A DNA stretch of 64,000 nt, taken from assembly GCA_937960645.1 (NCBI GenBank), contig CALGPJ010000009.1:68522-132521 (forward strand), given 5' to 3'. The number at the start of each line of letters is the position of its first letter. The stretch's first letter is position 1. This document shows, piece after piece, positions 7,224 through 60,342 of this stretch. The notes under the pieces were generated by a model. It did not search any database. It was not told the origin of the DNA and worked only from the letters and a program-made list of their open reading frames with translations. Source of the DNA: an uncultured Spirochaetia bacterium. GTDB lineage: Bacteria; Spirochaetota; Spirochaetia; JABEVK01. Made by a program: the position numbers and the translations under genes.

Positions 7224-7229
7224 CCCCTC

Positions 7230-8234: not shown

Positions 8235-8235
8235 G

Positions 8236-8796
8236 TCATGCCAACCAGAGGGTCTTACGCCCCAAATCCTCGGCTGCCGCCAAGCCCGAGTGTTTTTCGA
8301 TGATTTTGAGAGCCAGGAGGGCTGCCGTCCCCATGCCGCGGCTCGTCAGGAGATTGCCATCGGCCACCACGTCCCCCTCGGTCCACAGGCCCCCATTCGA
8401 CTGTTGCTCCATGCCAGGAAAACACGTGAAATGTCTGCCCTTCAACAGGCCCTGCGAACCAAGCACCACCACCGGGGCGGCGCAAATCGCCGAGAGAGTC
8501 TTATCGGGACGCTCGGCAAATAGTTTGAGAAAATCGGCAAGATCAGGATCGCCGGCAAGGTTCTTCGATCCGGGCATCCCTCCCGGAAGGAAAACGAGAT
8601 CCGGATAGTCTTTGTTCCATTCTCGAGGCCAGACCTTGTCGGCCTTGACGGTGATTCCATGGCTTCCCGTGACGTCTCTTCCCCCCAGACCCCAGGCTTC
8701 GACCGTGTAGCCGGCCCTGAGAAACAAGTCCCAAGGGATGATTGCTTCGGCCTCCTCAAACCCCTGGGCCAAAAACAGCCATACCTTTAGCGACAT
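8236..8796 (-). CDS. DJ-1/PfpI (ThiJ) family protein
   Basis: 186 aa; nucleophile-elbow AICAAP and overall DJ-1/PfpI pattern. Confidence 0.75.
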   Translation of the reverse strand: MSLKVWLFLAQGFEEAEAIIPWDLFLRAGYTVEAWGLGGRDVTGSHGITVKADKVWPREWNKDYPDLVFLPGGMPGSKNLAGDPDLADFLKLFAERPDKTLSAICAAPVVVLGSQGLLKGRHFTCFPGMEQQSNGGLWTEGDVVADGNLLTSRGMGTAALLALKIIEKHSGLAAAEDLGRKTLWLA

Positions 8797-29643: not shown

Positions 29644-30089
29644 CCGGGAGCCGTACATCCACTCGCGCTTTTGCTGCCAGGTTTGCATCGAAGATCGCAG
29701 GAGTTCTTGTCGGAACAACACACCTCCTCGGCAGCCGATGGATTGGAACCTTTGAACAGGGTAAATCCCGAAGCGGGTTCCCTGAGGGGCAGCCCAGACC
29801 ACCGGGCGATCTCCTCCGGTGAGGGATAGGCCCCCTTCTTGACCAGGACCCCATCGACCAGGGTGAGGGGCAGGGAATTCACCCCTTCCGATTGTAGCCT
29901 TTCCGCAACGGCGGGTTCCACCATGAACTCCTTGGGGTGGGCACTCAGATTGTAGCGCCGCACCTCGATGCCATGACGCGCCATCTCGTCCAGGGCCAAA
30001 GAGATTTTCAACAGCTGCGGATCGATGCTGGGTCCGCACAATCCAGTGGAGCAGCACATGGCCGGCTCGTACAATACAAGGGTTTTCAT
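29634..30089 (-). CDS. arsD: Arsenical resistance metallochaperone/repressor ArsD
   Basis: MKTLVLYEPAMCCSTGLCGPSID (Cys12/13/18 site) and Cys-rich C-terminal tail; AAGGAG SD before ATG at 30089. Confidence 0.8.
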   Translation of the reverse strand: MKTLVLYEPAMCCSTGLCGPSIDPQLLKISLALDEMARHGIEVRRYNLSAHPKEFMVEPAVAERLQSEGVNSLPLTLVDGVLVKKGAYPSPEEIARWSGLPLREPASGFTLFKGSNPSAAEEVCCSDKNSCDLRCKPGSKSASGCTAPGCC

Positions 30090-30448
30090 GATGGACACTC
30101 CTTTGGTGAGCACACGGGGGATACATTCTGGCACTCGCATTCCACACCTGGTTGAGTCACGGACTCCAGGCTGCGAACAAGGTTGTGTAAGGCAGAGGTT
30201 TGCAGGCGGTAGCGCATCCACTTTCCGCAGCGCGTGGCCTGAACCCATCCCTCTTCGCTGAGCACTTTCAGGTGGTGAGACAGAGTGGGCTGCGAGATCG
30301 GCAGGTATTCCAGGAGGTCGCAGGCACACAGGTCGCCGCAGGCCAAAAGGTGCACGATACGCAGACGCTGCTCATCGGCCAGAACCCGAAGCGCGGCAGC
30401 GAGCTGTCCCGGATCAGGAATACGCTGACTCGGAGTAACAAGTTTCAT
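30086..30448 (-). CDS. arsR: ArsR-family metalloregulatory repressor
   Basis: Start ATG at 30448 (MKLVTPSQ...). Metal-site CGDLCACDL (ELCVCDL-type) in HTH. Confidence 0.8.
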   Translation of the reverse strand: MKLVTPSQRIPDPGQLAAALRVLADEQRLRIVHLLACGDLCACDLLEYLPISQPTLSHHLKVLSEEGWVQATRCGKWMRYRLQTSALHNLVRSLESVTQPGVECECQNVSPVCSPKECPS

Positions 30449-30464
30449 AGCTTGAAAATAGTGC

Positions 30465-30488
30465 ACATATTGATGTTTGTCAATATGT
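30465..30488. promoter_or_regulatory. Perfect 9-6-9 inverted repeat ACATATTGA-N6-TCAATATGT, candidate ArsR operator in AT-rich promoter
   Basis: Seen directly 17-40 bp upstream of the arsR start codon on the minus strand. Confidence 0.5.
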
Positions 30489-30557
30489 ATCATGTTGCAT
30501 GATGTGCGTTCCGCGGGCGATCCTGGTCCCCTTCCCTGTCGCTAAGGGGCCCGGTTG

Positions 30558-32738
30558 CTAACGGGTAGACGCCGGGTTTTCGGTCGGTAAAACGAAGCCC
30601 GACAATTCCTGCTCGAGCTGCTTTCCCTGAGCCTTGAGATTTTCCGACATTTGCACCAGTTGACGGGCGATGCCCTTGGTGGCATCCGATCCCTGAGCGA
30701 GATGCACGATGTTTCGGCTCATTTCCTTGGCCCCATTGGACTGCTCGTTCACAGCGTTCTGGATGATGTCGAAGCTGTTGCGCAGGTTTTCGCTGAAATG
30801 CAGGAGCTCATGGAAGACCTTTCCCACCTCGTCGATGGCTGCGGCGATACCCATCACCGCAGTACTGACCGCTCCAATCTTTTCCCGGATGGATTGGATG
30901 GCAGCCTGCGAAGCTTGCCCGAGTTCCCCGATCTTTTCCGCGTCCCTGGTTCCTTTCTCGGTGATGCCGACGCCCTCCATCACCCCGTTACGCAGCTCTT
31001 CCAGAATATCCTGGATGTTGAGCACGGCTGCCTTGCTGTCGTCTGCCAGCTTTCTGATTTCCTCGGCGACTACCGAAAACCCCTTCCCGGCCTCCCCAGC
31101 GTGGGCGGCCTCGATGGCGGCATTCATGGCGAGAAGCCCCGTGTTGTCGGCAATCTGTTTGACCGTTGCCAGGATCTCGTCGATTTTCAGGGCCTGACGA
31201 CTGACCCCGCCCATGGTCTCGAAGGTCAAACTCATCTTTTCGGCGAGCTGGTTGGCCGTCTCCACGGATTGGGACAGGGTTGCCGCTCCCTCGGATGCCA
31301 CCTTTTCGGTAATCTCGGCCTGACCGATCACCTGCCGGGATTGTTCGGTGAGTTGGTTGATTTTGACGCCGATCTCCCGGATCTCCTGATTTTGTTTCAG
31401 GGTCATTTGGTACTGTTCGATCACCTTGTTCTCGACATGGTCGAGGGTCCGGGTGAACTCTTCCATGGTGCTGGAGATTTGCTCGAGGGAGCTGGCGTTT
31501 TCCAGGGTTTGGTTTCCCAGCATGCTGCCGGTGTCGTAGGTCTCGTTCGCGGATTTTTTGAGATCTTCTCCGATTCGCAGCAATTGGGCGATGATCCTAC
31601 CCAGGTTGAGGATGGTCTTGTTGGTGATCTCCGCCAGAAGGCCCAGTTCATCCCGGCTCAGGACGGGGATGACCAACGCCAGGTTTTTGGCCTCCATACG
31701 GCCAAAACCTTCATACACGGCGTTGAGCTGTTTGCGAAGGTTGCTCGCGACAATGATATTCAAAAGGATTGCCAGGGTGATCAAGACCAGGGCTGTCGCG
31801 AACATCAGGATCAGTGTTCGCACTCGGGCCGCGACTCGATCTTGAATGTCCTTAAAAACGGAGACTCCGGTTTCAAGGGCCAGATCGATGAGGGCGCCTG
31901 CCGACATCTCGATTCGTTTTCGGAATGTTTCGGTGGGTAAGTCATCGGGATTGTAGAGCACTTCGATCAATTCCAGAATAGAAGACTCGCGCTCCTGCCA
32001 AAATCGAGGCAAGCGCTCGGCATCGTGTCCAGGGTCCAGAATAGCCTCATGAATGGCATAATTCTCGAGCTGGCTTCGGATTTTGTTGTAGTACTCAGTG
32101 AACCAAAGACTAAAACTGTAGATTTCTCGATACAAGCCCGAATCGATGACGCCCGATCCCGTGTCCTCATTCAACACGAGGATGGCCAGGGACTCCAGCT
32201 TGGAAAGCACGTCCGGGATGAGACCCGAGTAGATTTGCAGCAAACTGTTGGTATGGGCTTCGGTATCTCTGCTAAACCCCGAGTTGACCGCCATTCGATG
32301 TTGAATTTCTTGCAAGGATAGAAATGCCTCGGTGTATGCCTGTCTCAGTTCGGAAACCGAATTGAAATTTTTGGAAATCGATAGCACGCGAGCCTCGAGT
32401 GTCTCCTTTCCAGAACCCTGGCCATCCTCTCCCAGGAGCCTCGAGAGGTTTCCTGCCTCTATTACCTCAAGACCTCGACGGAGTTTTTCGACAAGATCTG
32501 GGGACAAGGGACGCAATAAGCCGGAATTGGGGCGGCCAAGGGCGCTGTCCAGCACCGACTTCCGCAACCGATAAAGGGGGGAATAGAGTTCCAATCCGTC
32601 GAGCTCCCTCCTTGAATTATTCAAGTACTGTAGAGACTCCCCCAGCCAGAAAACCAGAAGCAGGCCCAGGGGGACCAGAAACCCCAGGGACGACAGGAAG
32701 AGTTTGAGCCGGATGCTGAAAATCCTGCGATGGGCCAT
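30558..32738 (-). CDS. Methyl-accepting chemotaxis protein (periplasmic sensor, HAMP, MCP signalling domain)
   Basis: Two TM segments; signalling domain motifs [34 protein letters not shown]. Confidence 0.85.
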
Positions 32739-40879: not shown

Positions 40880-41947
40880 TTACTGGTTGTTCGGGTTTTG
40901 CTGAGCGGCGTCCTGGGGAGGGAAGTCCTCAATGGTCGCCATCTTGCGCATCTCGAGGGCACGGAGGACTTGCAAGCGGCCAAGGCGGCTCAATTCGAAA
41001 CTGCGGCGGGCAGATTCACGGGCGTTGAGGATGCCCCAGGTCCCCTCATCATCGATGTCTTCACGGAGGTTGAGCACAGCTCGATCGTAGATGATTTTGA
41101 TGTCTTTGAAGTAGCTGATAAAGTCACCGCCCTCGGTTGCGGCATCCCGGTGGATGATCAAACCCTTGAGCCGGATGTAGGGAGCGCTGCGAGGATAGAG
41201 GGGAAGGATGCGCAGTTCACGGTTTCTCACCTCGGTCTGATACTGGGGGTTTCTCCATTGCAGGGTGTTCCAGCCATCCGACTGCAAATACCCGAGGAAG
41301 ATGGTCTGCTGTTGTGCATTCTCGTTCTCCAGCACGATGCTGAGACCGTGGGGGTAGTTACGGCCGAGGTAGTTGACCTGGATGTCTCGGATGACTCCGA
41401 CATTTTTGACGACACCGTAACCGACAAATTGATCACCAGGTTTGCTTTCGGGACCGTTCTGGCCTTGCTGCCGGGGAAGAGTGGCGTAGGCCGGAATGTC
41501 GAAAGGAGGCACGACCATGGCCGAGCTGGGGACCCGGTAGAGCGGGAAATGTACCCGGACGCCCATCACCGTTTGACCACCGTACCTGCTGGCGTCATCC
41601 TTGACAGCGGCTTCCCGGATTTGGGACTGAACGACGTTTTGTATCACACGGGCAGAGCTGGTCAGGCGGACTTCCCAGTTTCGAATTCGGAGGGAGGTCT
41701 TCATGACAGCCTTATCCGCAGCGGTAAAGCTTGTCCCCGCCTGGGTGCTGTAGTCGATCAAAGTCTGACCGTGTTCTTTTCTCATGTCTTCGGGCAAGTT
41801 GTCGCGGCCGGCGATTTCCGTGTCACCTACCAACTGGGAAAAATCGATCAAGGTAGCCAAACCGGTAAAGTCATCGGTTTGCTGGGCGACCAGACTCCCT
41901 GCGGCAAACATCGTCGATAACATAAACAAGGTTGCCAAGCGTTTCAT
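40880..41947 (-). CDS. flaA: Flagellar filament outer-layer (sheath) protein FlaA of periplasmic flagella
   Basis: Sec signal peptide; motifs recalled as FlaA-family hallmarks (GYGVVKNVGVI, FISYFKDIKIIYDRAVL). Strong sigma70 promoter and AAGGAG SD upstream, terminator downstream. Confidence 0.6.
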   Translation of the reverse strand: MKRLATLFMLSTMFAAGSLVAQQTDDFTGLATLIDFSQLVGDTEIAGRDNLPEDMRKEHGQTLIDYSTQAGTSFTAADKAVMKTSLRIRNWEVRLTSSARVIQNVVQSQIREAAVKDDASRYGGQTVMGVRVHFPLYRVPSSAMVVPPFDIPAYATLPRQQGQNGPESKPGDQFVGYGVVKNVGVIRDIQVNYLGRNYPHGLSIVLENENAQQQTIFLGYLQSDGWNTLQWRNPQYQTEVRNRELRILPLYPRSAPYIRLKGLIIHRDAATEGGDFISYFKDIKIIYDRAVLNLREDIDDEGTWGILNARESARRSFELSRLGRLQVLRALEMRKMATIEDFPPQDAAQQNPNNQ

Positions 41948-41988: not shown

Positions 41989-42016
41989 ATTATACGGTAG
42001 GACAAGGGTTTGTCAA
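41989..42016 (-). promoter_or_regulatory. Consensus sigma70 promoter TTGACA-N16-TATAAT for flaA
   Basis: Reverse complement reads cgTTGACAaacccttgtcctaccgTATAATtgg ~45 nt upstream of the flaA ATG. Confidence 0.65.
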
Positions 42017-42051: not shown

Positions 42052-42561
42052 TTATTCATCGACCTGGGTAAACTCGGTATCGTATTCGTGGCCTTCGATG
42101 GTGACAACCACTTCCTTGAGACTCGGGAAATTGTAAAGTACCCCTTTTTTCAGGAGCTCGATCCCTCGATGAAAATCGATGCGTGATTCGTAATCGCGTT
42201 CGAAGGACTTGGCGTTTAAATCGATGTAGACGATACCCTCCGCGACGAAAACCGTCTTGACGCGGGTCTGCAGGGGCAAAATCCGGAAGAGCTTGTTGAG
42301 CGAGGGCCCGAGGAGATACTCGCGGACATACAACGAGACGGCTTGCTCGTCGGAAGACTGGACCGGGAGCGCACGTTCCTCGGCTCCTGTTCCCTCGACG
42401 TAGTGCCGGGGAAAGAAAAAGATCCTCCTCTGCATGCGTCCCGGGTTGAAAAACCAAATCAAAACGGAAAGGAAAAGGATCCCTCCTAACACGAATAGGT
42501 GGATGGTTTGTCGGCTCTTGAGGTTCCTACTCATCGGCGGAACAATACCATCAAAAGCCAC
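42052..42561 (-). CDS. Hypothetical membrane-anchored protein (possible GerMN-like domain), last gene of modification operon
   Basis: N-terminal TM (IHLFVLGGILFLSVLIWFF); SLYVREYLLGP segment; overlaps ATP-grasp gene stop. Confidence 0.4.
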   Translation of the reverse strand: MAFDGIVPPMSRNLKSRQTIHLFVLGGILFLSVLIWFFNPGRMQRRIFFFPRHYVEGTGAEERALPVQSSDEQAVSLYVREYLLGPSLNKLFRILPLQTRVKTVFVAEGIVYIDLNAKSFERDYESRIDFHRGIELLKKGVLYNFPSLKEVVVTIEGHEYDTEFTQVDE

Positions 42562-43981
42562 GCTTCGGCAAGTCCTGAGTCAGACAGTCGAGGCGGTACA
42601 AGGCCCCTGGGATTCCGCCCGCCTCCAGGGCCTCCATGACTTTTTTCCGGAGATTTTTGGGCAATTTGCGCCATAAATCTGGCTCGATTCGCTGGATGTC
42701 CTCGAGTCTGTCCCGCCAGAGGATGCCGTACCAGTCCTGACCATCTCGAAATGCGGGCTGTTGGGGGTTGGAGAGCCAGTCTTCGGTCTGCGGATGGGGT
42801 GCCTGGAGCCTCGGAAACAGGAAGCGTCGATATTCTTTTAACCTCGAACGTGCCGCCTCGAGATCGGTCTGTGCCACGATGACATTCGCCAGTTTTTCCA
42901 CGTTGTTTCTCGGGAAGGTGGTAAGGTCCCCGGTTTTTCGAAGAAAAAAGATCTGTTCCCCCTCCCGCATCACGGGGCCGCCGTTCAAGCCGAACCACCC
43001 CATCAATGTGCCCGGAATACCGATGATGGCCCCCTCCACCACGGAACGTTCGAGAAAATAATTGGGGTTTTTCGGTTCCTGCCCCAGGGCCAGGAGAATG
43101 GCCTCCCGAACCGGGCTCAGCCCCGAAGCCAGGGGAAAGGTCCAGCCGCTCATGAAGCCCCCACTCAGTCGGGCGGCCACCTCTCCCACCACCGGCCGAC
43201 CCTTGTGCCACTTCAGATCCCCCTTGACCGCTCCCCACTCGAGTCCCAGGGCTCGAGCCGAGCTTTCCAGACAGTCCCAAAGCTCATTCTGTACCCTGGA
43301 AGCGGCATGGGTAGGAAAGCTGTGGCCCATTTCCACAAAGTATGGCGGAAAGTGGATGTCCCGATCGGCCAGCCCCCTCCGATAAAACCCCTTGGGGGTG
43401 ATGAGCGCATCCAGGCTGAACTCGGGTCCCTCGATGTAGTCCTCAACGATGGCCCGGCCCTGGCGGCTGTGGGCCAGAGCCCCCTGAACGGCCTGTTCGA
43501 GATCGGAAGCCGTGTCGACCCGCCGCACCCCACGGGCGCCCATGTTGTCCACGGGTTTGACCACGGCGGGAAAGTCGATTCCCCGAAAATCCCGGTGCTC
43601 CGAGTCCAAAACTTTGAACCGGGGAACCGGAATCCCCGCCTGGGCGAGCCTCTGCCGCATCAGGGCCTTGTCCTTCGCCGCCAGGGCCGCCTGGTAGGAG
43701 TGGGACCAAAGCCCGAACTCCTCTGCAATGTGTGCCACCGTGGTGGAAAAATCCGTACCCACCGTGAGCACCCCCCGGTAGGTGCCGCCCCATCGCCGAA
43801 GTGCTGCGACACAGGCAGCCTCGTCGCTAATGTCGCATTCCAGCCAGGAATCGGCCAGACGGCGGGCCACGGAGTTCGGATCGCGGTCCAACCCCAGGGT
43901 AGGGATTCCCATATCCCGAGCTTCCCGGTAGACGGGCTGTTGCATGAGGCCGCTCCCAACCACGATCAGGTGGCCCGTCAT
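42551..43981 (-). CDS. ATP-grasp domain carboxylate-amine ligase with C-terminal extension
   Basis: Start ATG at 43981 (GGAGG SD) overlapping upstream stop. ATP-grasp core DFPAVVKPVDNMGARGV...AIVEDYIEGPEFSLDAL. Confidence 0.75.
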   Translation of the reverse strand: MTGHLIVVGSGLMQQPVYREARDMGIPTLGLDRDPNSVARRLADSWLECDISDEAACVAALRRWGGTYRGVLTVGTDFSTTVAHIAEEFGLWSHSYQAALAAKDKALMRQRLAQAGIPVPRFKVLDSEHRDFRGIDFPAVVKPVDNMGARGVRRVDTASDLEQAVQGALAHSRQGRAIVEDYIEGPEFSLDALITPKGFYRRGLADRDIHFPPYFVEMGHSFPTHAASRVQNELWDCLESSARALGLEWGAVKGDLKWHKGRPVVGEVAARLSGGFMSGWTFPLASGLSPVREAILLALGQEPKNPNYFLERSVVEGAIIGIPGTLMGWFGLNGGPVMREGEQIFFLRKTGDLTTFPRNNVEKLANVIVAQTDLEAARSRLKEYRRFLFPRLQAPHPQTEDWLSNPQQPAFRDGQDWYGILWRDRLEDIQRIEPDLWRKLPKNLRKKVMEALEAGGIPGALYRLDCLTQDLPKRGF

Positions 43982-45687
43982 GGGAGCCTCCGGGCGTAGA
44001 TTTCCATCGTGTCGCCCCACCTGAGCCACCGCTGCAAAGCAGCCAGACCCGCCGTCCACCATCGACCCAGGGGGCGCCCCAAAAGCCGTTCGGGGTGGAT
44101 GCCGGTGGGCTCGATCCACCGAATTTGAAAATCGTGCCGGTCAAGAAGACGGCGCGCCGTGACCGGCTCCCAGAGCGTGTAGTGATCGGTGGGGCTTTCT
44201 CGAAAAAAGCGGCCGGGGTGGAATCGGGCCGTGAGACCCGCGGCGTTGGGGGTGGAGAGGAGCAGCCACCCCTGTGGACGCAGGAGGTAGCGCAGCCCCT
44301 GAAAGAGTGTCTGCAGATCGGGAAAGTGTTCGATCACGTACCAGAGGCTCACCGCATCGAAGCTCCTTTCGGGCCAGTTCTTTTCCCAGCCCACCACCCC
44401 CAGGTTGAGGCAGGTGGCCGGCACGCCCAGCTCCCGCTGGACCCAGGCCACCGCCTGAGGGTTGACATCGGCGCCCTCGACCACCATGCCCTTTTTTTGG
44501 GCGGCGGCCAGAAAGGGGCCGTAAGCACACCCGAGATCCAACAGACGCCGCCCTTGGAGGGGACCGCTCAACCGCTGAAGGACTGTCAGGCGTCGAGCGC
44601 CCAGGGCCTCGATGTTGGGAAAATCCTGCAGGTAAGTTTTGCCGTACTGGCTTCGATATTCGTCCTCGAAGTACTGCGGTCCGTAGTCTTTTTCGGGTAC
44701 CAGCCACGGCAGGAGGTAGAGGAAACCACAGTCCCGGCATCGGTAAAAGGTCCTGTCCTTTTGTCGGTTCACCACCCGAGCTCTGGCGGAACCACAGGCC
44801 GGGCAAAATCGGCCGTGACTGCGGAACCGCCGCCACAGCGCATGCGGCTCCTCGGGTTCCATGGGCTGGTGGTAGAGCTGTGACAGCCCCCTGGGATCTT
44901 GAATTTTTTCGAGGAACCGGACGAGTTTTCGGACAGATACCCCGCGAACTCCCAGCAGGGGCCAGCCTTTTCGCCGGGATAGCCGGGCATGGTACCGGCT
45001 GGGCTCCACCAGGAGAAAGGGCACCCCCTGGTTCCGGCACTCGTGGGCGGTGATGCCGTAGGAGCAGAAAACCAGATCGAAGTGCTGCAAATGATCCCGA
45101 AGCCGCTGGGGCCGGGAAAGCAGCGAGGGGCGGCGGCCGTGCAGCAGGGGAAGGTCCGAGCGGTCCTGCCAGGGCCCCTCGAGCACACTCACCTCCCACG
45201 TTAGGTCGGGTAATCGGTTCAAGCTCTTCAGGAGGCGGACGGCCAAATGGTGGCGGTCGGTTCCCCCGAAGGCCACCAGGACTCTGGTGACAGGCTTCGG
45301 TGTGTAGACCCGGTGGGGCCCCAGGTCCATGAGCCCGGGAGCCTGGCAATTGGGAGGGATTCGGCTGGTATTACCCAGGCTGTCCACCAGGAAGTCCATT
45401 CGGGAACGGCAGGCCGCCCCCTCGTCCCAGCCCACCAGGGGCCAGCCGCGCTCGGCAAAGGCGCGGTACAGGTCCCTTTCCGTTTTCCGTCGGTCGAAGA
45501 CGATCAGGTCCCAGGGCTCCTGAAAGGGGTCGTGGGTCTGCCAGAGCTCCTCGGAGATTTGCTCGGGGCGGCCCTCCGGGGCCCAGAGCCGCCCGCCGAC
45601 GGCACGGGCCGCTTCCCGGCAGCGGTTGAGGTGGCCCCACCCCCCCTCTGGCCGAACCGAGGGCACGAAGAGGATTTTTCTAGCCAC
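43978..45687 (-). CDS. Fusion protein: PseG/SpsG-like UDP-sugar hydrolase (GT-B fold) + Zn-ribbon class I SAM-dependent methyltransferase
   Basis: N-terminal KILFVPSVRPEGGWGHLNRC (PseG-like). C-terminal CPACGS...CRDCGF zinc ribbon followed by methyltransferase motif I LLDLGCAYGPF. Confidence 0.65.
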   Translation of the reverse strand: MARKILFVPSVRPEGGWGHLNRCREAARAVGGRLWAPEGRPEQISEELWQTHDPFQEPWDLIVFDRRKTERDLYRAFAERGWPLVGWDEGAACRSRMDFLVDSLGNTSRIPPNCQAPGLMDLGPHRVYTPKPVTRVLVAFGGTDRHHLAVRLLKSLNRLPDLTWEVSVLEGPWQDRSDLPLLHGRRPSLLSRPQRLRDHLQHFDLVFCSYGITAHECRNQGVPFLLVEPSRYHARLSRRKGWPLLGVRGVSVRKLVRFLEKIQDPRGLSQLYHQPMEPEEPHALWRRFRSHGRFCPACGSARARVVNRQKDRTFYRCRDCGFLYLLPWLVPEKDYGPQYFEDEYRSQYGKTYLQDFPNIEALGARRLTVLQRLSGPLQGRRLLDLGCAYGPFLAAAQKKGMVVEGADVNPQAVAWVQRELGVPATCLNLGVVGWEKNWPERSFDAVSLWYVIEHFPDLQTLFQGLRYLLRPQGWLLLSTPNAAGLTARFHPGRFFRESPTDHYTLWEPVTARRLLDRHDFQIRWIEPTGIHPERLLGRPLGRWWTAGLAALQRWLRWGDTMEIYARRLP

Positions 45688-46345
45688 GAAGCGCCTCGAT
45701 GAGCCGTGCCGTATCCAGAGGCGGGCTCCACCCGTTTTGATCGACCAGCTCTTGCAATCTTTTCAGGTCCTCCGGGGTATCCACGGTGACCCGCTCCTGG
45801 GGGCCAAAATAAACCGGGGGAACGGTGGGCCGCCCCACCCGAAACAGCTCGGGATTGTGGTAAATAAATGGTGTGACGTGCTCCCTCTCGTAGGCGTCGG
45901 GATGGCTCTCCCAGGCGAGCTTCAGGGCATCGGCGCGCACCGCCTCGGTCCCCACGCCCAGGGGGGCCATCTGGTAAGCAAACAGGTCCCAGCCGCCCTC
46001 CTCCAACGCCCTCAGGTTGAGTTCCGCCAGATGGGCGGAAACGAAGGGGTTGTCGCCGGTGGCGCGCAACAAACTTTGCACTCCGTAATGCATCGCGGCC
46101 TGGGTGAATCGGTCCAGCACATCCTCCGGATCCCCGACGTAGAGGTCCCAGCCCTCCCGATCGGTGTAAGGCAGCAGGGCAGATCGGCTGGCGGAATCGG
46201 TCAGCACCGCGTGCACGTCCGCTCGCACTTCCCTGAGGGATCGTAGACACCATTCGAAAAGGGTCAATCTTCCCAGGGATAACAGCGCCTTGCCAGGGAG
46301 CCGGCTCGATCCCATCCGTACCTGTAAAAACACGGCCGTACTCAT
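45680..46345 (-). CDS. Cytidylyltransferase (CTP_transf_3; SpsF/PseF/NeuA-like)
   Basis: Start ATG at 46345 (ATGA overlap, GGAGG SD). MSTAVFLQVRMGSSRLPGKAL is the hallmark N-terminal motif. Confidence 0.7.
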   Translation of the reverse strand: MSTAVFLQVRMGSSRLPGKALLSLGRLTLFEWCLRSLREVRADVHAVLTDSASRSALLPYTDREGWDLYVGDPEDVLDRFTQAAMHYGVQSLLRATGDNPFVSAHLAELNLRALEEGGWDLFAYQMAPLGVGTEAVRADALKLAWESHPDAYEREHVTPFIYHNPELFRVGRPTVPPVYFGPQERVTVDTPEDLKRLQELVDQNGWSPPLDTARLIEALRG

Positions 46346-47289
46346 CCCCACTCCCTCCACAGCTGTTTCAAGGCCACGGCGTCCATCCGAAACCGGTAGC
46401 TGAATCCCCTGATCCAGCGCCGAACACTGTGAAAGGTCTTCCAAGCCTTGAAAGGCGAGAGACCGCTGCGAAGCAAAAAGGGGAAAAAAAGTCGGAGCGG
46501 CAGCTCGATATGATCCAGATTGTACTGCGGCACGATGTTTTTGAGATAAAAACGTTCGTAGCCGTTGATGGGGGTGGTATCCTCCAGAGGGGGATCGCTC
46601 AGGTACTGGATGCGGAACCCCTTCAGGCATCGGATGCTCTCCCCCCAGAGGTGGACCCGAAAGCCCCAGTCTGCCTTCTGCCAATAGGCGCTGGCGATCG
46701 AGGGATCGAAGCCCCCCGTTTGCAGGAAGGTGTTCGGTCGGTAAAACCCCGTGAGGTCCATGGGGTAGAGGCTTTCGTGGAGCTCGTTTTGGGAAAAGAT
46801 GTTGATGAATTGCAGCACATTTCCCCTTTTGAGGGGGACGATGAGGTGGGGAATTTCCTCTCCCTTGGGCGATTTCAGCTCCGGGATGTAAACCAGGGCG
46901 GGTTTGTCCCAATCGCCCCGAACGAGTTTTTGAGGCGGAAAAGGTTCCAGTACCTCCATGCTGTCGGTAATGACCAGCATCCACTCGCTCCGAGAGACTC
47001 CCAGGGCCATCTGCATCCAAAGAGGCTCGGTGATGGGTAGCGAGGGAATGAGGAACTTGACGGGGAGATCGTTGGGAAAGGGCTCGCTCGGCACGGAACC
47101 GGGATCGCGCCGCAAAATGACCTCACGGGCCCCATAGGCCACCAGCTTGCGGGCAAGTTCCAGCTGAAAGTACACGGGGCCCCGGGGCAGGATGATGGCC
47201 CCCCAGGACAAGCCCTCGTGGATGGGCAGGGGGTTGAGATTTCCCGTCAGGGTGTAGGATGCATTAAAAGACGAACTGAAAGTACTCAT
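46342..47289 (-). CDS. Hypothetical protein (315 aa) in modification operon; no motif recognised
   Basis: Translationally coupled on both sides; could be the transferase of the system (untested). Confidence 0.4.
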   Translation of the reverse strand: MSTFSSSFNASYTLTGNLNPLPIHEGLSWGAIILPRGPVYFQLELARKLVAYGAREVILRRDPGSVPSEPFPNDLPVKFLIPSLPITEPLWMQMALGVSRSEWMLVITDSMEVLEPFPPQKLVRGDWDKPALVYIPELKSPKGEEIPHLIVPLKRGNVLQFINIFSQNELHESLYPMDLTGFYRPNTFLQTGGFDPSIASAYWQKADWGFRVHLWGESIRCLKGFRIQYLSDPPLEDTTPINGYERFYLKNIVPQYNLDHIELPLRLFFPFLLRSGLSPFKAWKTFHSVRRWIRGFSYRFRMDAVALKQLWREWG

Positions 47290-48709
47290 GACAGGACCGG
47301 CATTCTTCCGGGTAACGTTCTTCCTGATGGGCGAGCATCCACCCCGTACCCCGCTCCCACACAGCCGCGGGATCTTCCTCGAGCAGGTTTCCCCAGTATA
47401 CCTCGCCCTGGGGATATTGATGGCAACTCACCACCCTGCCGTCGGCCAGGCTGTGGAGTCCCCGTTGCAGATGCCAGCAGGGGTGGCGCTTCCAGGGAGA
47501 GAGGTCCACGGTCCGGCGATTCGGCAGCCGTCCGGCCATATCGTTGTAGCCCACCACCAGGGGCTTGTACCCCTCCTCCTTGACCTGGATGTAGAAGTTT
47601 TCCACGTGATCCTCGGTGAGGTCGCACCGCGTGGTCTGGAGATACACCCTGCCCGCAAACATGTCACGCAGCGTTTGAGCCGTTTGACGCATGACCTCGA
47701 AGCCCTCTCCGCGCAGCTGTCGATACAGCTGCGGTTCCCAGGCATCGGCCTCCACGATCCAGGTGATCTTTCCTTTTAGCCGGCCGAGCTCGTTGAGCAC
47801 CTCGGATGTCCATCCCAGCCCGGATGTTTCCACGACCAGCTCGAAGCCCAATTCCAGGGCGGAGCGAAGAGCCGCGACCGCGTGGGGATAGAGGGCAACC
47901 TCCCCCCAGAACCCCGGAAGGAGCACCCCGCCTCCCATCCAGCGGCCCACACGCTCGAGCATTCGGCGTAAATCTTCGAGGGGCAAATCGACCCGCGTCG
48001 TAGAATAAAAGCGCGGGTCCGAGTAGGCGGGGACCTGCGCCACCGCATTGGTCCATTGCATCTTCCAGTACGCCGGCAGGGTGCGCTGGGAAACTCGGTC
48101 CCGCGCGACTTCGGACAGAAACCGATCCAGGGACCATTGGGCCCTCTCCAGGAATCGGCTGATCAACAGCCGGTTGCGTGGGCAATCGTCGAAGAAGGTG
48201 ATCCGCCAGGTGCGCAGATCGATGGGGCTCAATAGAGTTTCAACATCGAAGTGGTTGACGTGGTGGAGAAGGCAGGAGAAAAGTCCCTGCCGATCGGGCA
48301 GTTCCTCCGCTTGCTCCAGGGCAGCGATCCCCTGAAGGGCGAAGGTGCTGACCGCTTCGGGTGCCAGACCCAGGGGATAACAGTCCGCAAAGGTGTAGTC
48401 GGCCTTGTGCTGACGATGGGTCTGCCAGATTTGGCGCGAAAGGTCTTCCCGAAGAAGGGGCGCATCGGCCGGAATCAGCATCAGGTGCTCTTCGTTTCCG
48501 CTGGCCTGCAGCAGGGCTTGCAGCCAACCGCGGCGATCCGACCATTCCGCCGGAATGACGTCCGCCTGCCACCAGGACGGGGGTCTGCCCAACCAGGCGA
48601 CTTTCTTCACGAAATCCCAGGAGGCGACACGGCGGGCTAAATCCCGGGTTTGGGGCAAAACCCCCTCCCCCAGGCTGCCGTCCGGGGTCCAAAAAAGGCA
48701 ACTGACCAT
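47264..48709 (-). CDS. SPASM-domain protein with radical-SAM-like core lacking the CxxxCxxC triad (spiro-SPASM-like)
   Basis: GGGVLLPGFWGEVALYP (GGEPLL-like) and ELVVETSG but no CX3CX2C; C-terminal Cys cluster CWH...SCH...ECRSCHEY (SPASM/twitch-like). Confidence 0.55.
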   Translation of the reverse strand: MVSCLFWTPDGSLGEGVLPQTRDLARRVASWDFVKKVAWLGRPPSWWQADVIPAEWSDRRGWLQALLQASGNEEHLMLIPADAPLLREDLSRQIWQTHRQHKADYTFADCYPLGLAPEAVSTFALQGIAALEQAEELPDRQGLFSCLLHHVNHFDVETLLSPIDLRTWRITFFDDCPRNRLLISRFLERAQWSLDRFLSEVARDRVSQRTLPAYWKMQWTNAVAQVPAYSDPRFYSTTRVDLPLEDLRRMLERVGRWMGGGVLLPGFWGEVALYPHAVAALRSALELGFELVVETSGLGWTSEVLNELGRLKGKITWIVEADAWEPQLYRQLRGEGFEVMRQTAQTLRDMFAGRVYLQTTRCDLTEDHVENFYIQVKEEGYKPLVVGYNDMAGRLPNRRTVDLSPWKRHPCWHLQRGLHSLADGRVVSCHQYPQGEVYWGNLLEEDPAAVWERGTGWMLAHQEERYPEECRSCHEYFQFVF

Positions 48710-48763: not shown

Positions 48764-49237
48764 ATGGCCCCCCTGCTGCTTTTGTCCCTCCTGGCCCTGC
48801 TCGGCTGTGCCGCCCCGGCCTCCGGACGGATCGAAGTGATGCTGCGAACCAGCGGCTGGCGATGGGTCCGAGATCAGGATGCCGACTTTCAGGTTCAGGT
48901 GCCGCTTCCAAACGGGCGCCGCCAGAGGGTGGTGATCCGGCAAAAGGTTTTCGCCACCGAGCGCGGCCAGATGCGGGAAATCCTCAGCAAGGCGGAACAG
49001 CTGAACAAGGCCCCGGAGAGCGGCCTGCTCCGGCACCTTTTGGAGGCCTCGGCCGAAATCGAGGTTTGGGGCCACTGGGGGCTCATCAAAAATCCCGCTT
49101 CGGGGGAATATATCATCGCCTACATCATCAAGATTCCCGAAAACTCTGGTCAAAGCCTGTTACGCCGAGCGGTTCTGGAAGCAGCCCATGTCGCCGACCA
49201 CTGGGAAAGGCTCACCTCCGGTCTGGACCAGTACTAG
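48764..49237 (+). CDS. Hypothetical lipoprotein
   Basis: Likely start ATG at 48764 (MAPLLLLSLLALLGCAAP, lipobox); listed ORF starts further upstream. Confidence 0.45.
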   Translation: MAPLLLLSLLALLGCAAPASGRIEVMLRTSGWRWVRDQDADFQVQVPLPNGRRQRVVIRQKVFATERGQMREILSKAEQLNKAPESGLLRHLLEASAEIEVWGHWGLIKNPASGEYIIAYIIKIPENSGQSLLRRAVLEAAHVADHWERLTSGLDQY

Positions 49238-49258: not shown

Positions 49259-50455
49259 ATGTCCCAAGCCGTCTGGACCGTCAGCCAGCTCATGTCAAGT
49301 CTCAAGGACCTGGTCGAACCAGCCTTCGAGAACCTGACGGTGGAAGGAGAGGTGAGCGGCCTGCGCCCCAACACCAGCGGGCACCTCTATTTCACCCTCA
49401 AAGACGACACGGCCCAGGTCGATTGCGCCCTGTTCAGCTACCAGAGGTCCAAAATCACCATCGAGATCAAAAACGGCGATCAGGTCCAGGTCAAGGGAAG
49501 ACTCTCCATTTACGAGATGCGGGGAAAGATCACCTTCATCGTCCAACACATCATTCCGCTTGGCCTGGGGAATGTGTTGATGCGGCTGGAGGAATTGAAG
49601 CGGCGGCTGGCGGCCGAGGGGCTCTTCGATTCGCGGCGCAAGCGGAGCCTTCCCTCCTTTCCCCAGCGTATTGCCCTGATTACCAGCCCCACCGGGGCGG
49701 CCCTGCAGGACATGTTGCGGGTTTTCCGGCAGAGGGGTGCCTGGGCGCAGGTGCTGGTTGTGGGCGCCGCTGTCCAGGGTGAGGACGCCCCCGCGCAGCT
49801 CGTTCAGGCCCTGAGATACGTCAACCGCTGGGAGCTGGCCGATGTGATCATCATCGGGCGCGGCGGCGGCTCCTTCGAGGACCTCCTCCCCTTCTCCGAC
49901 GAGGCGGTCGTTCGCGCGGTTTCCGAAAGCCGTATCCCCGTGGTGTCCGCGGTGGGCCACGAGATCGATAATCCGCTCTGTGACCTGGCTGCCGACGTCG
50001 CCGCCCCAACCCCAACCGCCGCCGCCGCCCTTGTCTGGCCGCATTTCCGAGATGACTGGTTGCATCGGATCATCGAGCACCGCACCCACCTTCAACACGA
50101 AATCCAACGGCGGTTCGAGGAAACCGAACGGCTGTTGCGACCATTTCGGGCCGAAAATCTGGCCATCACCATCGAGCAGATTCTGGATCCGGTCCGAAGC
50201 CGCCTTACCTGGCTACGGGAAGAGCTTCCCGCCGCCATCAAACAAGTCCTGCACACCGCACGCCTGAACCTGACCCGACTCCAGGAGGGACTGCAGGCCC
50301 ACAGCCCCCTGGATGTTTTGCGCCGGGGGTACGCTATTGTCCAGACCGATGCCGGAATCCTGAGACGAGCGGCCGAGGCGCCGATCGGAACGGCACTTAC
50401 CATCCAGCTTCACGAGGGGCGAATCAGTGCGACAAGTCAAGGAGAACGATCATGA
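49259..50455 (+). CDS. xseA: Exodeoxyribonuclease VII large subunit
   Basis: N-terminal OB fold (VSQLMSSLKDLVE...LTVEGEVSG), IIGRGGGS catalytic-domain motif; overlaps xseB. Confidence 0.85.
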   Translation: MSQAVWTVSQLMSSLKDLVEPAFENLTVEGEVSGLRPNTSGHLYFTLKDDTAQVDCALFSYQRSKITIEIKNGDQVQVKGRLSIYEMRGKITFIVQHIIPLGLGNVLMRLEELKRRLAAEGLFDSRRKRSLPSFPQRIALITSPTGAALQDMLRVFRQRGAWAQVLVVGAAVQGEDAPAQLVQALRYVNRWELADVIIIGRGGGSFEDLLPFSDEAVVRAVSESRIPVVSAVGHEIDNPLCDLAADVAAPTPTAAAALVWPHFRDDWLHRIIEHRTHLQHEIQRRFEETERLLRPFRAENLAITIEQILDPVRSRLTWLREELPAAIKQVLHTARLNLTRLQEGLQAHSPLDVLRRGYAIVQTDAGILRRAAEAPIGTALTIQLHEGRISATSQGERS

Positions 50456-50697
50456 AAAGCAAGGACAACATGCCAAGTTTCGAAGAACGTCTGGCCGAGC
50501 TGGAGTCCCTGAGTCAGGGGCTGCGATCGGGAAAACTTCCCCTTAACGAGGCGATCGACGCCTTCGAAAGGGGCATCAAACTTGCCAACAGCCTGGAAAA
50601 GGAGCTGAAACAGATGCAATTGAAAGTCGAAAAGCTCCTGAGTGTGCCATCGGACCCGGACACCCCTGCCGAAAAAGAACTTTTCGATGAGGAATGA
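50452..50697 (+). CDS. xseB: Exodeoxyribonuclease VII small subunit
   Basis: 81 aa; FEERLAELESLSQGLRSGKLPLNEAIDAFERGIKL. Confidence 0.85.
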   Translation: MKSKDNMPSFEERLAELESLSQGLRSGKLPLNEAIDAFERGIKLANSLEKELKQMQLKVEKLLSVPSDPDTPAEKELFDEE

Positions 50698-58262: not shown

Positions 58263-59534
58263 TCAGGTGTCGAGCACCAAAAACCGGTTCGGAATGGCCA
58301 CGAATTCGGGACCCTCGAAATACTCTCGCTGGGCGATGGCCGAGCTCCAGCGGGAGGAGGCCAAAAGATCGCGCAGGTTTCCGCGAAGCGCAAAGTCCCG
58401 ATAGGCCTGCCGTGCTTGCCGGGGGCTCTCACTTCCCAGGGCAAAAGGGATGGATGCCGAGAAGTCTCCGCTGGCCTCGTCCAGCTGCCAATCGTCGAGG
58501 TGATAAATTTCCAAATAGGGGCTGACACGCAGCTCCTCTTTGGAAAGACTGCCTGGCCCCACACTGAAATTCACGGGATGACCGCTGACGGGCAGACCCA
58601 GAAAGTGGGCCTCCCGCTGGCTGGCGGTGAAAGCCCGGACCACACCATCCCGGACCAGTTCGGTATCCTTGAGCATCACCCCTTCCTCGTCGAACCAGCG
58701 AGAAAAGGGACTGTTGTAAAGTTTGACCAGGGGCTTCAGGGTGACGGTGTCGCCTGTTACTGTCGGGAAAAGGGGTTTTCCTACCTCCCATGTCGAATCT
58801 CCCGAGTAAAGCGCCGCCCCGTCGAGCTGGCGCAGCAGGTAAGAGAACACCAGGCCGGGCAGATTTCCTCCCAGGACCACCAGGGAAGGCATTTCCCTCT
58901 CCCAGCGGCGGGGCGTCCTCAGGGCCTGGCGCTCCTCCTCGAAACGCTGGGCTTTGAGCGTGATCCGCTCGGGCAAATACTCACCATGTCGAAAGCGCAA
59001 GGAGTGATTTTCGGATTGCGCTTCGATTTCGCACCAGTGCCCCACGTGTTCCATCTGCCGTCCGAGACTGTCGAGGTAGAGGGTTTCCAGCCCGATAGCG
59101 GCGAAGCGTGTTGCGATTTCCCGGTTTGCGCCGGCATAAAACGCCTCTGCCAAAGACGGCAGCCAATCGGCCAAATCGGGCTTTTTGGCCAGGGACGATT
59201 CCTGGGTCTGGCCTGGCCCCGATGGGCCACGGTGCATCGGGAACCAGGGCCAGGGTTCCTCCTCCTGAGCGGACAGGGCTTTCTGAATTTCCGCCTTGAT
59301 TTGATCGATGGTCAAATGTGCGCTCAATTCCAGGGTATGCTCTCGGGTCCACTTCCGACGACGGGCATGAAAATCCTGGAAAATTTTGAGCCGGCAAGTC
59401 CAGGTCTCCTGACGCTCAACTTCCCCGCCACTACCCTGAATCCAGGACCGGGCGGCCGTCACCTTCCGAAAGAAGAGCAATTTCCATTTGCCGAGGCCGA
59501 GTTCATCGAGAGCTTGGGTCCAAATTTTGATCAT
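58263..59534 (-). CDS. TldD/PmbA-family metalloprotease-related protein
   Basis: 423 aa; C-terminal region resembles TldD/PmbA (low sequence specificity). Confidence 0.5.
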   Translation of the reverse strand: MIKIWTQALDELGLGKWKLLFFRKVTAARSWIQGSGGEVERQETWTCRLKIFQDFHARRRKWTREHTLELSAHLTIDQIKAEIQKALSAQEEEPWPWFPMHRGPSGPGQTQESSLAKKPDLADWLPSLAEAFYAGANREIATRFAAIGLETLYLDSLGRQMEHVGHWCEIEAQSENHSLRFRHGEYLPERITLKAQRFEEERQALRTPRRWEREMPSLVVLGGNLPGLVFSYLLRQLDGAALYSGDSTWEVGKPLFPTVTGDTVTLKPLVKLYNSPFSRWFDEEGVMLKDTELVRDGVVRAFTASQREAHFLGLPVSGHPVNFSVGPGSLSKEELRVSPYLEIYHLDDWQLDEASGDFSASIPFALGSESPRQARQAYRDFALRGNLRDLLASSRWSSAIAQREYFEGPEFVAIPNRFLVLDT

Positions 59535-59568
59535 CGAATATATTTTAACCCAAAAACTTCAAAAGGTC

Positions 59569-59598
59569 TTGCAACACAAGAGCGGAGTTGGCTATAAT
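59569..59598 (+). promoter_or_regulatory. Sigma70-like promoter TTGCAA-N18-TATAAT upstream of micro-ORF
   Basis: cTTGCAAcacaagagcggagttggcTATAATct, followed 12 nt later by AAGGAGGTGAGG SD. Confidence 0.5.
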
Positions 59599-59624
59599 CT
59601 GCCGATATTGAAGGAGGTGAGGCT

Positions 59625-59714
59625 GTGCCCTGTGGAAGAAAGCGTAAACGCAAAAAAATTGCCACCCACAAGCGGAAGAAAAAGCTCCGCAAAAACCGTC
59701 ACAAGAAAAAGTAA
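59625..59714 (+). CDS. 29-aa highly basic peptide (MPCGRKRKRKKIATHKRKKKLRKNRHKKK), bTHX/AURKAIP1-COX24-like small ribosome-associated-type protein
   Basis: GTG start 4 nt after GGAGGTGAGG; open to TAA at 59712-59714; 21 of 29 residues K/R/H; below the ORF-track length cut-off. Confidence 0.45.
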   Translation: MPCGRKRKRKKIATHKRKKKLRKNRHKKK

Positions 59715-59715
59715 G

Positions 59716-60342
59716 ATCCACACTTTTCGGCGATTCTTTTCTTCAATACTGACAAGCATTTTATCACTGTTCACGATTACGATTCTGTCATTGGATGGGC
59801 AAGAGGTTCCTTCGACGAGCCTCTTTCCGCCCAACCATCCCGGATATTTTATGGGACGAATCCACTGGAAAGTCGGGGACCCCATCCGTATCAGTTTGGA
59901 TTCCAAAGTCAACCTGAGCATCAAGTCGATCCGGACAAGCCAGCGCAACGCCACACGGGAGCTGAGCGCCGAGGCCCAAACCTCCCCTCTCACCGCTTTG
60001 CCGCCGGCACGTACGAACAGTGACTTTCAGCTGGAAACCGGGATTCAGCGTCAGTTCCAGGGAAACTTGGTCGGGGTGGTGCAGGAAGTACTCCCCGATG
60101 GTAATCTGCGCGTGGCCGCCAGCCGCAAACTGGACTTGACCGGAAGCCTGGAGGAACTAGAAATCGAGGGGCTCGCCGCCCCTGTCCTGATCCAGGGCGG
60201 CAGGATTCACCTGCAAGACCTGGCCCAGTTGCGGCTGAAACTTCGTCTGCCGGCCCAGGGCAGACCCATGGAAGACCTTAGCCAGGAGCAGATCCTTCAA
60301 CGCTACTGGTCGCAATTCTGGGATTCGTTGAGCTCGCCGTAG
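59716..60342 (+). CDS. flgH: FlgH-like flagellar L-ring family protein (start codon unresolved)
   Basis: VGDPIRISL ... VVQEVLPDGNLRVAASRKLDLTGSLEELEIEGLAAPVLIQGGRIHLQDLAQLRLKL ... ILQRYWSQFWDSL parallels FlgH family blocks. Signal-like RRFFSSILTSILSLFTITIL has no in-frame ATG/GTG between 59488 and it; the frame opens directly after the micro-ORF stop. Confidence 0.45.
   Translation: MHTFRRFFSSILTSILSLFTITILSLDGQEVPSTSLFPPNHPGYFMGRIHWKVGDPIRISLDSKVNLSIKSIRTSQRNATRELSAEAQTSPLTALPPARTNSDFQLETGIQRQFQGNLVGVVQEVLPDGNLRVAASRKLDLTGSLEELEIEGLAAPVLIQGGRIHLQDLAQLRLKLRLPAQGRPMEDLSQEQILQRYWSQFWDSLSSP

Follow-up and report, generated by a model that had tools for sequence, protein, structure and literature searches.

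A conserved spirochete gene cluster upstream of flaA with apparently unprecedented domain fusions and a predicted role in glycan tailoring

The stretch of DNA considered here (hereafter the window) comprises 64,000 nucleotides of contig CALGPJ010000009.1 from an uncultured Spirochaetia bacterium (assembly GCA_937960645.1, positions 68,522 to 132,521 of the forward strand), and carries on its minus strand six tightly packed genes (42052-48709), which are numbered g1 to g6 with g1 being the most 5', directly upstream of flaA. The first five constitute a putative glycan-tailoring gene cluster featuring domain fusions for which no precedent was found. Each catalytic domain encoded by g1-g5 falls into a nucleotide-sugar, amide-forming or methyl-forming family, g3 is paralogous to the N-terminal domain of g1, and g4 is itself a fusion, which together argues for one pathway. 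A nucleotide-sugar modification system, as put forward in a preliminary description of the window, is thus the best reading of the domain families of g1-g5. That these genes encode, more specifically, a cytoplasmic pathway which would tailor and transfer a nucleotide-linked sugar is given a chance at or slightly above even, judged from the sequences. The locus as a whole is better read as two modules, five genes plus one, with g6 siding with an Amidase_3 gene and flaA.

The conservation of this arrangement was followed by scanning species-representative genomes with a pattern derived from the alignment of the spiro-SPASM family, to which g1 belongs, and by mapping the window proteins with phmmer onto the 80 best loci, which were kept. 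A spiro-SPASM relative is encoded in at least 574 stretches of these genomes, and the taxonomic labels of the 80 best loci are nearly all spirochete, one reading only "uncultured bacterium". Among the 47 loci of sufficient length, the order divergent xseA, g1, g2, g3, g4, g5, Amidase_3, GerMN, flaA is preserved in 40 under strict counting and in about 44 once artefacts of open reading frame (ORF) boundaries are discounted. The same order recurs in further contigs at 30-35% protein identity, and cheA directly follows flaA in two further contigs with the conserved order. The median junction distance is zero or negative for all pairs from g1 to the GerMN gene and amounts to 95 nt ahead of flaA, while a divergent xseA is present in 51 of the 68 loci with enough upstream sequence. 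Moreover, a perfect TTGACA-16-TATAAT motif precedes flaA in 29 of 48 loci, a number that rises to 36 if up to one mismatch is allowed. The g1-g6 block is among the most strongly conserved seen in these spirochete genomes, and the co-conservation by which the initial proposal was to be judged is strongly evident. The clade of the window differs from the others in three respects: it is devoid of the Amidase_3 gene, which lies between g5 and the GerMN gene in about 44 of the 47 other loci, it lacks the cysteine triad of g1, and it features an extra lipoprotein-like gene between g1 and xseA. The closest amidase-bearing version (47% identity to g1, 49% G+C) resides in a metagenome-assembled genome labelled 'Borreliella garinii' (L006, DYOB01000063.1), a label that looks wrong.

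The product of g1 matches the spiro-SPASM model TIGR04321 with 335.9 bits (E 4e-100; curated cut-off 250). This is a curated family without assigned function, whose named relatives all carry spirochete labels and on which no paper was found in the full-text literature. The AlphaFold model of g1 (mean predicted local distance difference test, pLDDT, 87.1) comprises a cytidylyltransferase-fold domain without the loop that binds cytidine triphosphate (CTP; residues ~1-205), a barrel of the radical S-adenosylmethionine (SAM) type without CxxxCxxC (residues ~210-390), and a SPASM/twitch-like domain with four cysteines (residues ~405-481). Beyond its N-terminal domain the model superposes on SuiB (20.9), SkfB (19.7), BlsE (19.3), anSME (19.0), BtrN (18.6) and MoaA (18.5). 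At the position of the cysteine triad, g1 of the window reads TNAVAQVPAYSDP, as opposed to CPQxCSYCPYP in the orthologs. The CxxxCxxC motif is kept in 61 of 82 orthologs and missing in 21, where it is replaced according to several different patterns, which argues that the triad was lost more than once. No match of the window protein to the radical-SAM family PF04055 was reported by the Pfam scan, and by its missing CxxxCxxC it falls outside the radical-SAM enzymes, although the modelled fold is nonetheless radical-SAM-like. The early characterization of g1 as a SPASM protein devoid of the cysteine triad was therefore correct. The SPASM part itself scores 21.7 bits with PF13186 (cut-off 21.5) and 18.7 bits with TIGR04085 (cut-off 27), and the C-terminal region retains four invariant cysteines (C411, C429, C470, C473) in place of the seven-cysteine pattern for two auxiliary clusters, that is, enough for one auxiliary cluster. 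Since the ligands of the SAM cluster are gone in the window clade, g1 would be without radical-SAM chemistry there and would serve as a binding or scaffold subunit only.

A close connection between g1 and the cytidylyltransferase g3 is apparent from the N-terminal domain of g1, which is a g3 paralog: hhalign of the two families yields 97% probability (E 6.5e-11), and 5 of 12 g3-family members match TIGR04321. The alignment of both families begins past the CTP loop of g3, and the g1 domain is devoid of the RxxSxRxxxK loop, leaving no counterpart of the g3 residues R10, S13, R15 and K19, while DxP and PxGxxxE motifs are retained. From the retention of these motifs and the lack of the loop we infer that the domain binds a nucleotide-sugar and is catalytically disabled. 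A cytidylyltransferase paralog joined to a radical-SAM/SPASM core, in which the SAM cluster was repeatedly lost, is new at the family level, no precedent being present in the libraries and literature searched. BtrN, BlsE and DesII, which are radical-SAM enzymes with sugar substrates and an auxiliary cluster, differ from g1 by the cytidylyltransferase-fold domain that g1 adds and from the window protein also by its missing SAM-cluster ligands.

In g3 itself the CTP-binding loop is intact. The protein belongs to PF02348 (CTP_transf_3; 81.3 bits, cut-off 22.6), and its invariant residues encompass R10, S13, R15, K19, D98-N99-P100 and D189/T190/D193. Compared with the PDB, the family profile finds the Leptospira cytidylyltransferase 6oew (1e-34), followed by the synthetases of cytidine monophosphate (CMP)-activated 3-deoxy-D-manno-octulosonic acid (CMP-Kdo; KdsB, ~1e-8), while NeuA, PseF and LegF are not matched. 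Likewise, none of 12 g3-family members matches the NCBIfam models of PseF (TIGR03584), NeuA or LegF. Of the initial designation as SpsF/PseF-like cytidylyltransferase, the cytidylyltransferase assignment stands, whereas the PseF-likeness does not.

In the g4 protein, a PseG-like domain is followed by a Cys4 zinc ribbon and then by a class I SAM methyltransferase (Methyltransf_23, 81.6 bits). The PseG model TIGR03590 is matched with 18.8 bits over residues 131-227, far below its equivalog cut-off of 153.55, and the profile of the N-terminal domain finds GT28 enzymes as well as Campylobacter jejuni PseG (3hbm) in the PDB; the C-terminal half of this domain resembles GT28/MurG enzymes. A GxGHxxR motif, of which G16, G18, H19 and R22 do not vary among 50 orthologs, aligns with GFGHIKR of 3hbm. 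The histidine of the PseG GFGH motif (His17) is presumably the catalytic one, as has been proposed. For the C-terminal part, the PDB matches of longest coverage are the 3-C-methyltransferases acting on nucleoside diphosphate (NDP)-sugars, namely KijD1 (2e-11), TcaB9 (1.5e-9) and the mycarose 3-C-methyltransferase. KijD1-type enzymes own a Cys4 zinc domain, an architecture shared with the C-terminal part of g4, in which the four cysteines of the zinc ribbon and a DxGCAxGPF motif are invariant. The combination of PseG-like domain and zinc-ribbon methyltransferase in one protein is new at the family level. As originally described, g4 thus joins a PseG homolog to a methyltransferase with a zinc ribbon; an assignment to the PseG equivalogs is not sustained by the score.

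A ligase of the ATP-grasp superfamily had been recognised in g5, in agreement with its match to ATP-grasp_4 (PF13535; 48.8 bits, cut-off 27). The closest PDB entries are the L-amino-acid ligases 3vot (3.4e-13) and 4wd3 (1.5e-6), Ddl is also matched, and LAL_C2 and ATPgrasp_N are present in g5 orthologs. Hence, g5 is predicted to act as a carboxylate-amine ligase akin to the L-amino-acid ligases. Across orthologs the catalytic motifs of g3, g4 and g5 are invariant. The window also holds a FemAB-family gene (PF02388; 26924-27919, plus strand), which probably encodes a tRNA-dependent peptidoglycan cross-bridge transferase; in view of this gene, g5 was set aside as a candidate glycine ligase for the peptidoglycan cross-bridge.

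The 315-aa product of g2 is modelled as a glycosyltransferase of the GT-A type (Rossmann-like, GT2/GT27-like), with TarS and TarP among its fold matches. A Maf/MptE-like protein, for which the preliminary description had suggested a check, was dismissed, as PF01973 is not matched by g2 in Pfam and the fold is GT-A instead. The family encompasses roughly 200-300 sequence clusters, lacks a Pfam or NCBIfam model, and is new at the family level as a GT-A family. At the place of a DxD/DxH metal motif, reading by eye gives D-S-M for the window, D-N-M for L006, and N-D-M, S-D-M or D-D-Q for others; an aspartate is kept but shifts its position and is outside the list of residues conserved at 95%, unlike D195 and D207.

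In contrast to these five genes, g6 belongs to a second module. It encodes a GerMN protein (Germane, PF10646, 25.5 bits) with an N-terminal membrane anchor, and is the ortholog of TDE1713 of Treponema denticola. In this organism TDE1716-TDE1712, which include the amidase, GerMN and flaA genes, are co-transcribed according to reverse transcription PCR (RT-PCR), and a promoter termed 'PflaA' was mapped only upstream of TDE1716 (PMC9481697). This transcription study was the only result of a full-text search on the T. denticola genes upstream of flaA. A T. denticola-like contig (L100), which was retrieved by exact match to one published RT-PCR primer and carries 11 primers of that study, encodes at 5931-8677 (minus strand) a 125-aa protein (TDE1716) that reads as glyoxalase-like by eye, no domain search having been made, phosphoglycerate kinase (TDE1715), Amidase_3 (TDE1714) and GerMN (TDE1713), followed by flaA (TDE1712). 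The GerMN gene is matched by the hidden Markov model (HMM) of the g6 family at 1.5e-22, while none of g1-g5 is found within 11.7 kb on this contig. An equation of TDE1716 and TDE1715 with g1 and g2, guessed from primer translations, was abandoned in light of the glyoxalase-like protein and the phosphoglycerate kinase. Hence, the T. denticola unit agrees with the conserved block at its downstream end, in the order Amidase_3, GerMN, flaA, whereas the upstream positions are taken by the genes of the glyoxalase-like protein and phosphoglycerate kinase in place of g1-g5; in addition, the unit contains the amidase, which the window lacks.

Since L100 keeps amidase, GerMN and flaA without g1-g5, g6 appears to travel with the amidase and flaA, and g1-g5 are separable from them. 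The view of g6 as the small membrane protein of a six-gene system thus holds for the membrane anchor, while the gene itself belongs to the Amidase_3-GerMN-flaA trio and not to the sugar genes. This second module would consist of the periplasmic GerMN protein, Amidase_3 (lost in the window clade) and FlaA, would operate apart from the sugar chemistry, and would have flaA under its own conserved consensus promoter. On L100, a TTGACA-16-TATACT motif, within the region 5364-5460, is located ~40 nt upstream of the flaA ATG; together with the mapping of PflaA only upstream of TDE1716, it suggests that flaA of T. denticola may own a second, proximal promoter.

If the domain families and folds are taken as a guide, the five enzymes could be connected in the following manner. 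The PseG-like domain of g4 would release the sugar from its NDP carrier, and the zinc-ribbon methyltransferase of the same protein would methylate the sugar or a side chain. Subsequently, g5 would link a carboxylic acid through an amide bond to an amino group on the sugar, and g3 would activate the finished sugar acid, of the 2-keto-3-deoxy type, as a CMP-sugar. The latter would be held by the disabled g3-like domain of g1, which in most lineages would then run a radical-SAM step, while in the window clade, where one auxiliary cluster is left to it, it would only bind or serve as a scaffold. Finally, g2, whose gene always overlaps g1, would transfer a sugar to an acceptor. The most likely end product would be an O-glycan of the nonulosonate type, carried in decorated form by the FlaB flagellin core, with the core genes for the nonulosonic acid (NulO) sitting elsewhere in the genome.

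Motility of spirochetes depends on periplasmic flagella, and a glycan of flagellin is a plausible target of g1-g5 by analogy with T. denticola. There, the O-glycan of FlaB was described as a nonulosonate bearing a 2-methoxy-4,5,6-trihydroxy-hexanoyl group, and O-glycosylation of flagellin was reported to be essential for filament assembly (PMC13439194). No paper assigning enzymes to this acyl decoration was found. The acyl group is reportedly amide-linked at N7. An amide-linked 2-methoxy acyl group calls for an O-methyltransferase and an amide-forming ligase, and g1-g5, which hold enzymes of the amide ligase, methyltransferase, NDP-sugar hydrolase and CMP-activating types, hence represent a concrete set of candidates for the decoration of FlaB. 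Moreover, a flagellin glyco-profiling study included NulO synthases of Treponema pallidum and T. denticola in its tests (10.1101/2022.03.25.485807), from which it follows that both species encode one. A further hint is provided by a metagenome-assembled genome of a termite-gut Treponema (L058), in which a Maf gene (6286-7719, plus strand; PF01973, 98.7 bits) is located two genes upstream of g1, in the order Maf, ftsH, g1, g2, and g3-g5 do not follow; among the fetched loci Maf was found in L058 only. As the specific target of g1-g5, flagellin is nevertheless a tentative and rather doubtful assignment.

Known systems resemble g1-g5 in part. In the pseudaminic acid (Pse) pathway, PseG and PseF correspond to Cj1312 and Cj1311 of C. 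jejuni, whose genes are adjacent, or are fused as HP0326 in Helicobacter pylori. A cytidylyltransferase gene directly beside a PseG-like gene is likewise found in g3-g4, and the likeness extends to the GFGH motif of PseG and to PF02348. On the contrary, PseB, PseC, PseH and PseI are missing from the window, a methyltransferase is appended to the PseG-like domain, which scores low, and g3 resembles CMP-Kdo synthetases more closely than PseF. The sps genes of Bacillus subtilis encode a GT-A enzyme (SpsA), a cytidylyltransferase (SpsF) and a PseG-like protein (SpsG), and are related to legionaminic acid of the spore crust. They can be likened to g1-g5 by enzyme type only, as SpsE (NeuB-type), SpsC and SpsD have no counterpart here, and the radical-SAM/SPASM protein, the methyltransferase and the ATP-grasp ligase are extra in g1-g5. 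In the cytoplasmic flagellin-modification operon sfmABCDE of Shewanella oneidensis, a SAM methyltransferase and a carboxylate-amine ligase of the ATP-grasp_4 type decorate flagellin-linked NulO (PMC3765264), a pairing shared with g4-g5, again by enzyme type. Unlike g1-g5, this operon encodes a PseI-like protein (SfmA) and a predicted 3-oxoacyl-ACP reductase (SfmC), and no radical-SAM, GT-A, PseG-like or cytidylyltransferase component was described for it (PMC3765264).

Several observations weigh against the proposed tailoring pathway and its link to flagellin. No NeuB/PseI, PseB, PseC or Maf gene was detected in a Pfam sweep of the 64-kb window, in line with the absence of NeuB/PseI and PseB/PseC already remarked upon in the preliminary description, and NeuB, PseB/PseC and Maf are missing from the flanks of most loci as well. 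No CMP-NulO synthetase is as close to the g3 protein as the CMP-Kdo synthetases are, and the PseG-like domain of g4 stays far under the equivalog cut-off. GT-A enzymes normally use NDP-sugars and rarely CMP-sugars, so that g2 may not transfer the product of g3. Furthermore, the transferase expected for flagellin NulO in spirochetes is Maf and not a GT-A enzyme (10.1101/2023.12.03.569772). The linkage to flaA is not better conserved than that to xseAB, and as the conserved block includes these unrelated genes, a flagellar target is only weakly indicated by the vicinity of flaA. In some Treponema-like genomes (L058, L085, L093), g1 and g2 occur alone and constitute the tightest core of the g1-g5 unit. 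The searched literature contains no experiment on any of these genes, and a full-text search for the g1-g5 combination in spirochetes returned nothing relevant. Finally, most other genomes have g5 in translational coupling with the gene of a peptidoglycan amidase, which points to the cell wall.

A role in the cell wall, in which g1-g5 would make a sugar-acid or amide decoration of peptidoglycan or of a wall-linked glycopolymer, Amidase_3 and GerMN would process or recognise it, and flaA would be a mere neighbour, is nonetheless considered unlikely. Overlapping or abutting genes for g5, Amidase_3 and GerMN are seen in about 44 of 47 loci, yet the window clade lost the amidase and kept g1-g5 intact, and L100 testifies to the converse. 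Such a role would agree with the GT28/MurG-like half of the PseG-like domain of g4, with the fold matches of g2 to TarS and TarP, which are GT-A enzymes decorating wall polymers, and with the Ddl matches of g5, as other bacteria employ ATP-grasp ligases to assemble the side chains of peptidoglycan. On the other hand, the conserved block lacks a gene for a lipid carrier, a flippase or a polymerase, and cross-bridge addition could be explained by the FemAB-type gene.

The absence of canonical NulO genes nearby and the unlikeness of g3 to PseF and NeuA also fit a self-contained pathway, in which g1-g5 would turn a common uridine diphosphate (UDP)-sugar into an undescribed CMP-sugar acid other than a nonulosonate, with a radical-SAM step on the CMP-sugar held by g1, and g2 would install the product on a periplasmic or envelope target. 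The lack of a precedent for the g1 fusion in the libraries and literature searched is consistent with this possibility, and so is the finding that the best fold matches of g1 include BlsE, DesII and BtrN, radical-SAM enzymes whose substrates are nucleoside- or NDP-sugars. However, the five genes provide no C-C condensing enzyme, dehydratase or aminotransferase by which the sugar acid or the amino group could be created, a quarter of the lineages do without the radical-SAM cluster, and to our knowledge no PseG-like enzyme has been described outside the NulO pathways (Pse, sps). A self-contained pathway thus appears quite unlikely. Its boldest form would comprise a route to a new CMP-sugar acid, in which g1 represents a new type of enzyme whose disabled cytidylyltransferase domain presents the CMP-sugar to the radical-SAM/SPASM core, with the chemistry lost several times and the scaffold kept, and in which the new GT-A family installs the product in the periplasm, for example on the flagellar filament or on peptidoglycan; taken as a proposal in its own right, it is speculative and unlikely.

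A stretch of unrelated genes without a single function, inherited in synteny and packed for reasons of genome economy, would account for the conserved neighbourhood of xseA/xseB and for the separate occurrence of g1+g2 and of amidase-GerMN-flaA in some genomes, but is very improbable given the overlap of g1-g5 at every junction in nearly all genomes, the nucleotide-sugar theme common to all five, the paralogy of g3 and the g1 N-terminal domain, and the fusion of two sugar-nucleotide domains within g4. Least probable is a system akin to those for peptides made by ribosomes and modified after translation (RiPPs), in which a SPASM maturase, an ATP-grasp ligase, a methyltransferase and a SunS-like glycosyltransferase would act on a precursor peptide or a flagellar protein: the C-terminal part of g1 does find its best fold matches in the RiPP maturases SuiB, SkfB and ChlB, and RiPP clusters often include genes for ATP-grasp enzymes and methyltransferases, but a search for a precursor gene revealed no broadly conserved small ORF upstream of g1 across the loci, g1 carries a nucleotidyltransferase-fold domain where RiPP maturases have a peptide-recognition domain, the SAM-cluster cysteines are missing in the window protein and in 21 of 82 orthologs, and g3 as well as both parts of g4 indicate nucleotide-sugars. 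The tailoring pathway outlined above, whose gene set has so far been seen only in spirochete-labelled genomes, therefore remains the preferred reading of g1-g5.

The features of the locus are compiled in Table 1; the public metagenome contig ERZ6863697 matches the window exactly. All six overlapping or abutting genes of the preliminary description are present on the minus strand, and the overlaps of 4-26 nt given there apply from g1 to g5 (g1/g2, 26 nt; g2/g3, 4 nt, ATGA; g3/g4, 8 nt; g4/g5, 4 nt, ATGA), while g5 and g6 overlap by 11 nt with the GTG start of g6 and are separated by a 16-nt gap with its ATG start. The true start of g3 is the ATG listed, which is preceded by GGAGG. A consensus promoter of flaA between g6 and flaA had also been described correctly: its -35 hexamer begins 36 bp past the g6 stop, which is 104 bp distant from the flaA ATG. 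No terminator-like site was found between g6 and flaA, and g1-g6 are predicted, from the overlaps and the lack of predicted terminators, to form a single transcription unit.

Table 1. Positions of the genes, domains and regulatory elements of the g1-g6 locus within the window
Feature	Position	Strand	Evidence
g1, spiro-SPASM protein, 481 aa	47264-48709	-	ORF + TIGR04321
g2, GT-A fold glycosyltransferase-like protein, 315 aa	46342-47289	-	ORF + fold
g3, CTP_transf_3 cytidylyltransferase, 221 aa, ATG at 46345	45680-46345	-	PF02348
g4, PseG-like/zinc ribbon/methyltransferase fusion, 569 aa, GTG start	43978-45687	-	Methyltransf_23 + profiles
PseG-like domain of g4, aa 1-285	44833-45687	-	
Cys4 zinc ribbon of g4, aa ~291-322	44722-44817	-	weak zinc-ribbon matches
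Class I SAM methyltransferase of g4, aa ~369-522	44122-44583	-	
g5, ATP-grasp ligase, 476 aa, ATG start	42551-43981	-	ATP-grasp_4
g6, membrane-anchored GerMN protein, GTG start	42052-42561	-	PF10646
g6, alternative ATG start, 160 aa, as in public-contig calls	42052-42534	-	
flaA promoter TTGACA-16-TATAAT, sigma70-type consensus	41989-42016	-	12/12 match
flaA, periplasmic-flagellum sheath protein, 355 aa, ATG at 41947	40880-41947	-	PF04620, 250.7 bits
157-aa ORF, lipoprotein-like signal (LLGC), divergent, between g1 and xseA	48764-49237	+	public-contig gene call (L001, L094)
xseA + xseB (exonuclease VII), divergent from g1-g6	49259-50697	+	Pfam labels on public contig

The 157-aa ORF, whose LLGC lipobox was read directly off the translation, was seen in the clade of the window only and is without a match in the Pfam scan. 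The G+C content of the window is 54-65%, and a search for riboswitches and known RNAs yielded one tRNA-Met and nothing else. Downstream of xseAB, a gene on the plus strand (59488-60342) matches the L-ring protein FlgH (PF02107, 47.9 bits, cut-off 27), an L-ring being unexpected for the periplasmic flagella of most spirochetes. In another part of the window (~27900-31700, mapped from L086 12291-14823), genes for an ArsR-type regulator, ArsD and ArsA adjoin the gene of a methyl-accepting chemotaxis protein (MCP), and genes for polyphosphate kinase and Ppx are located further along.

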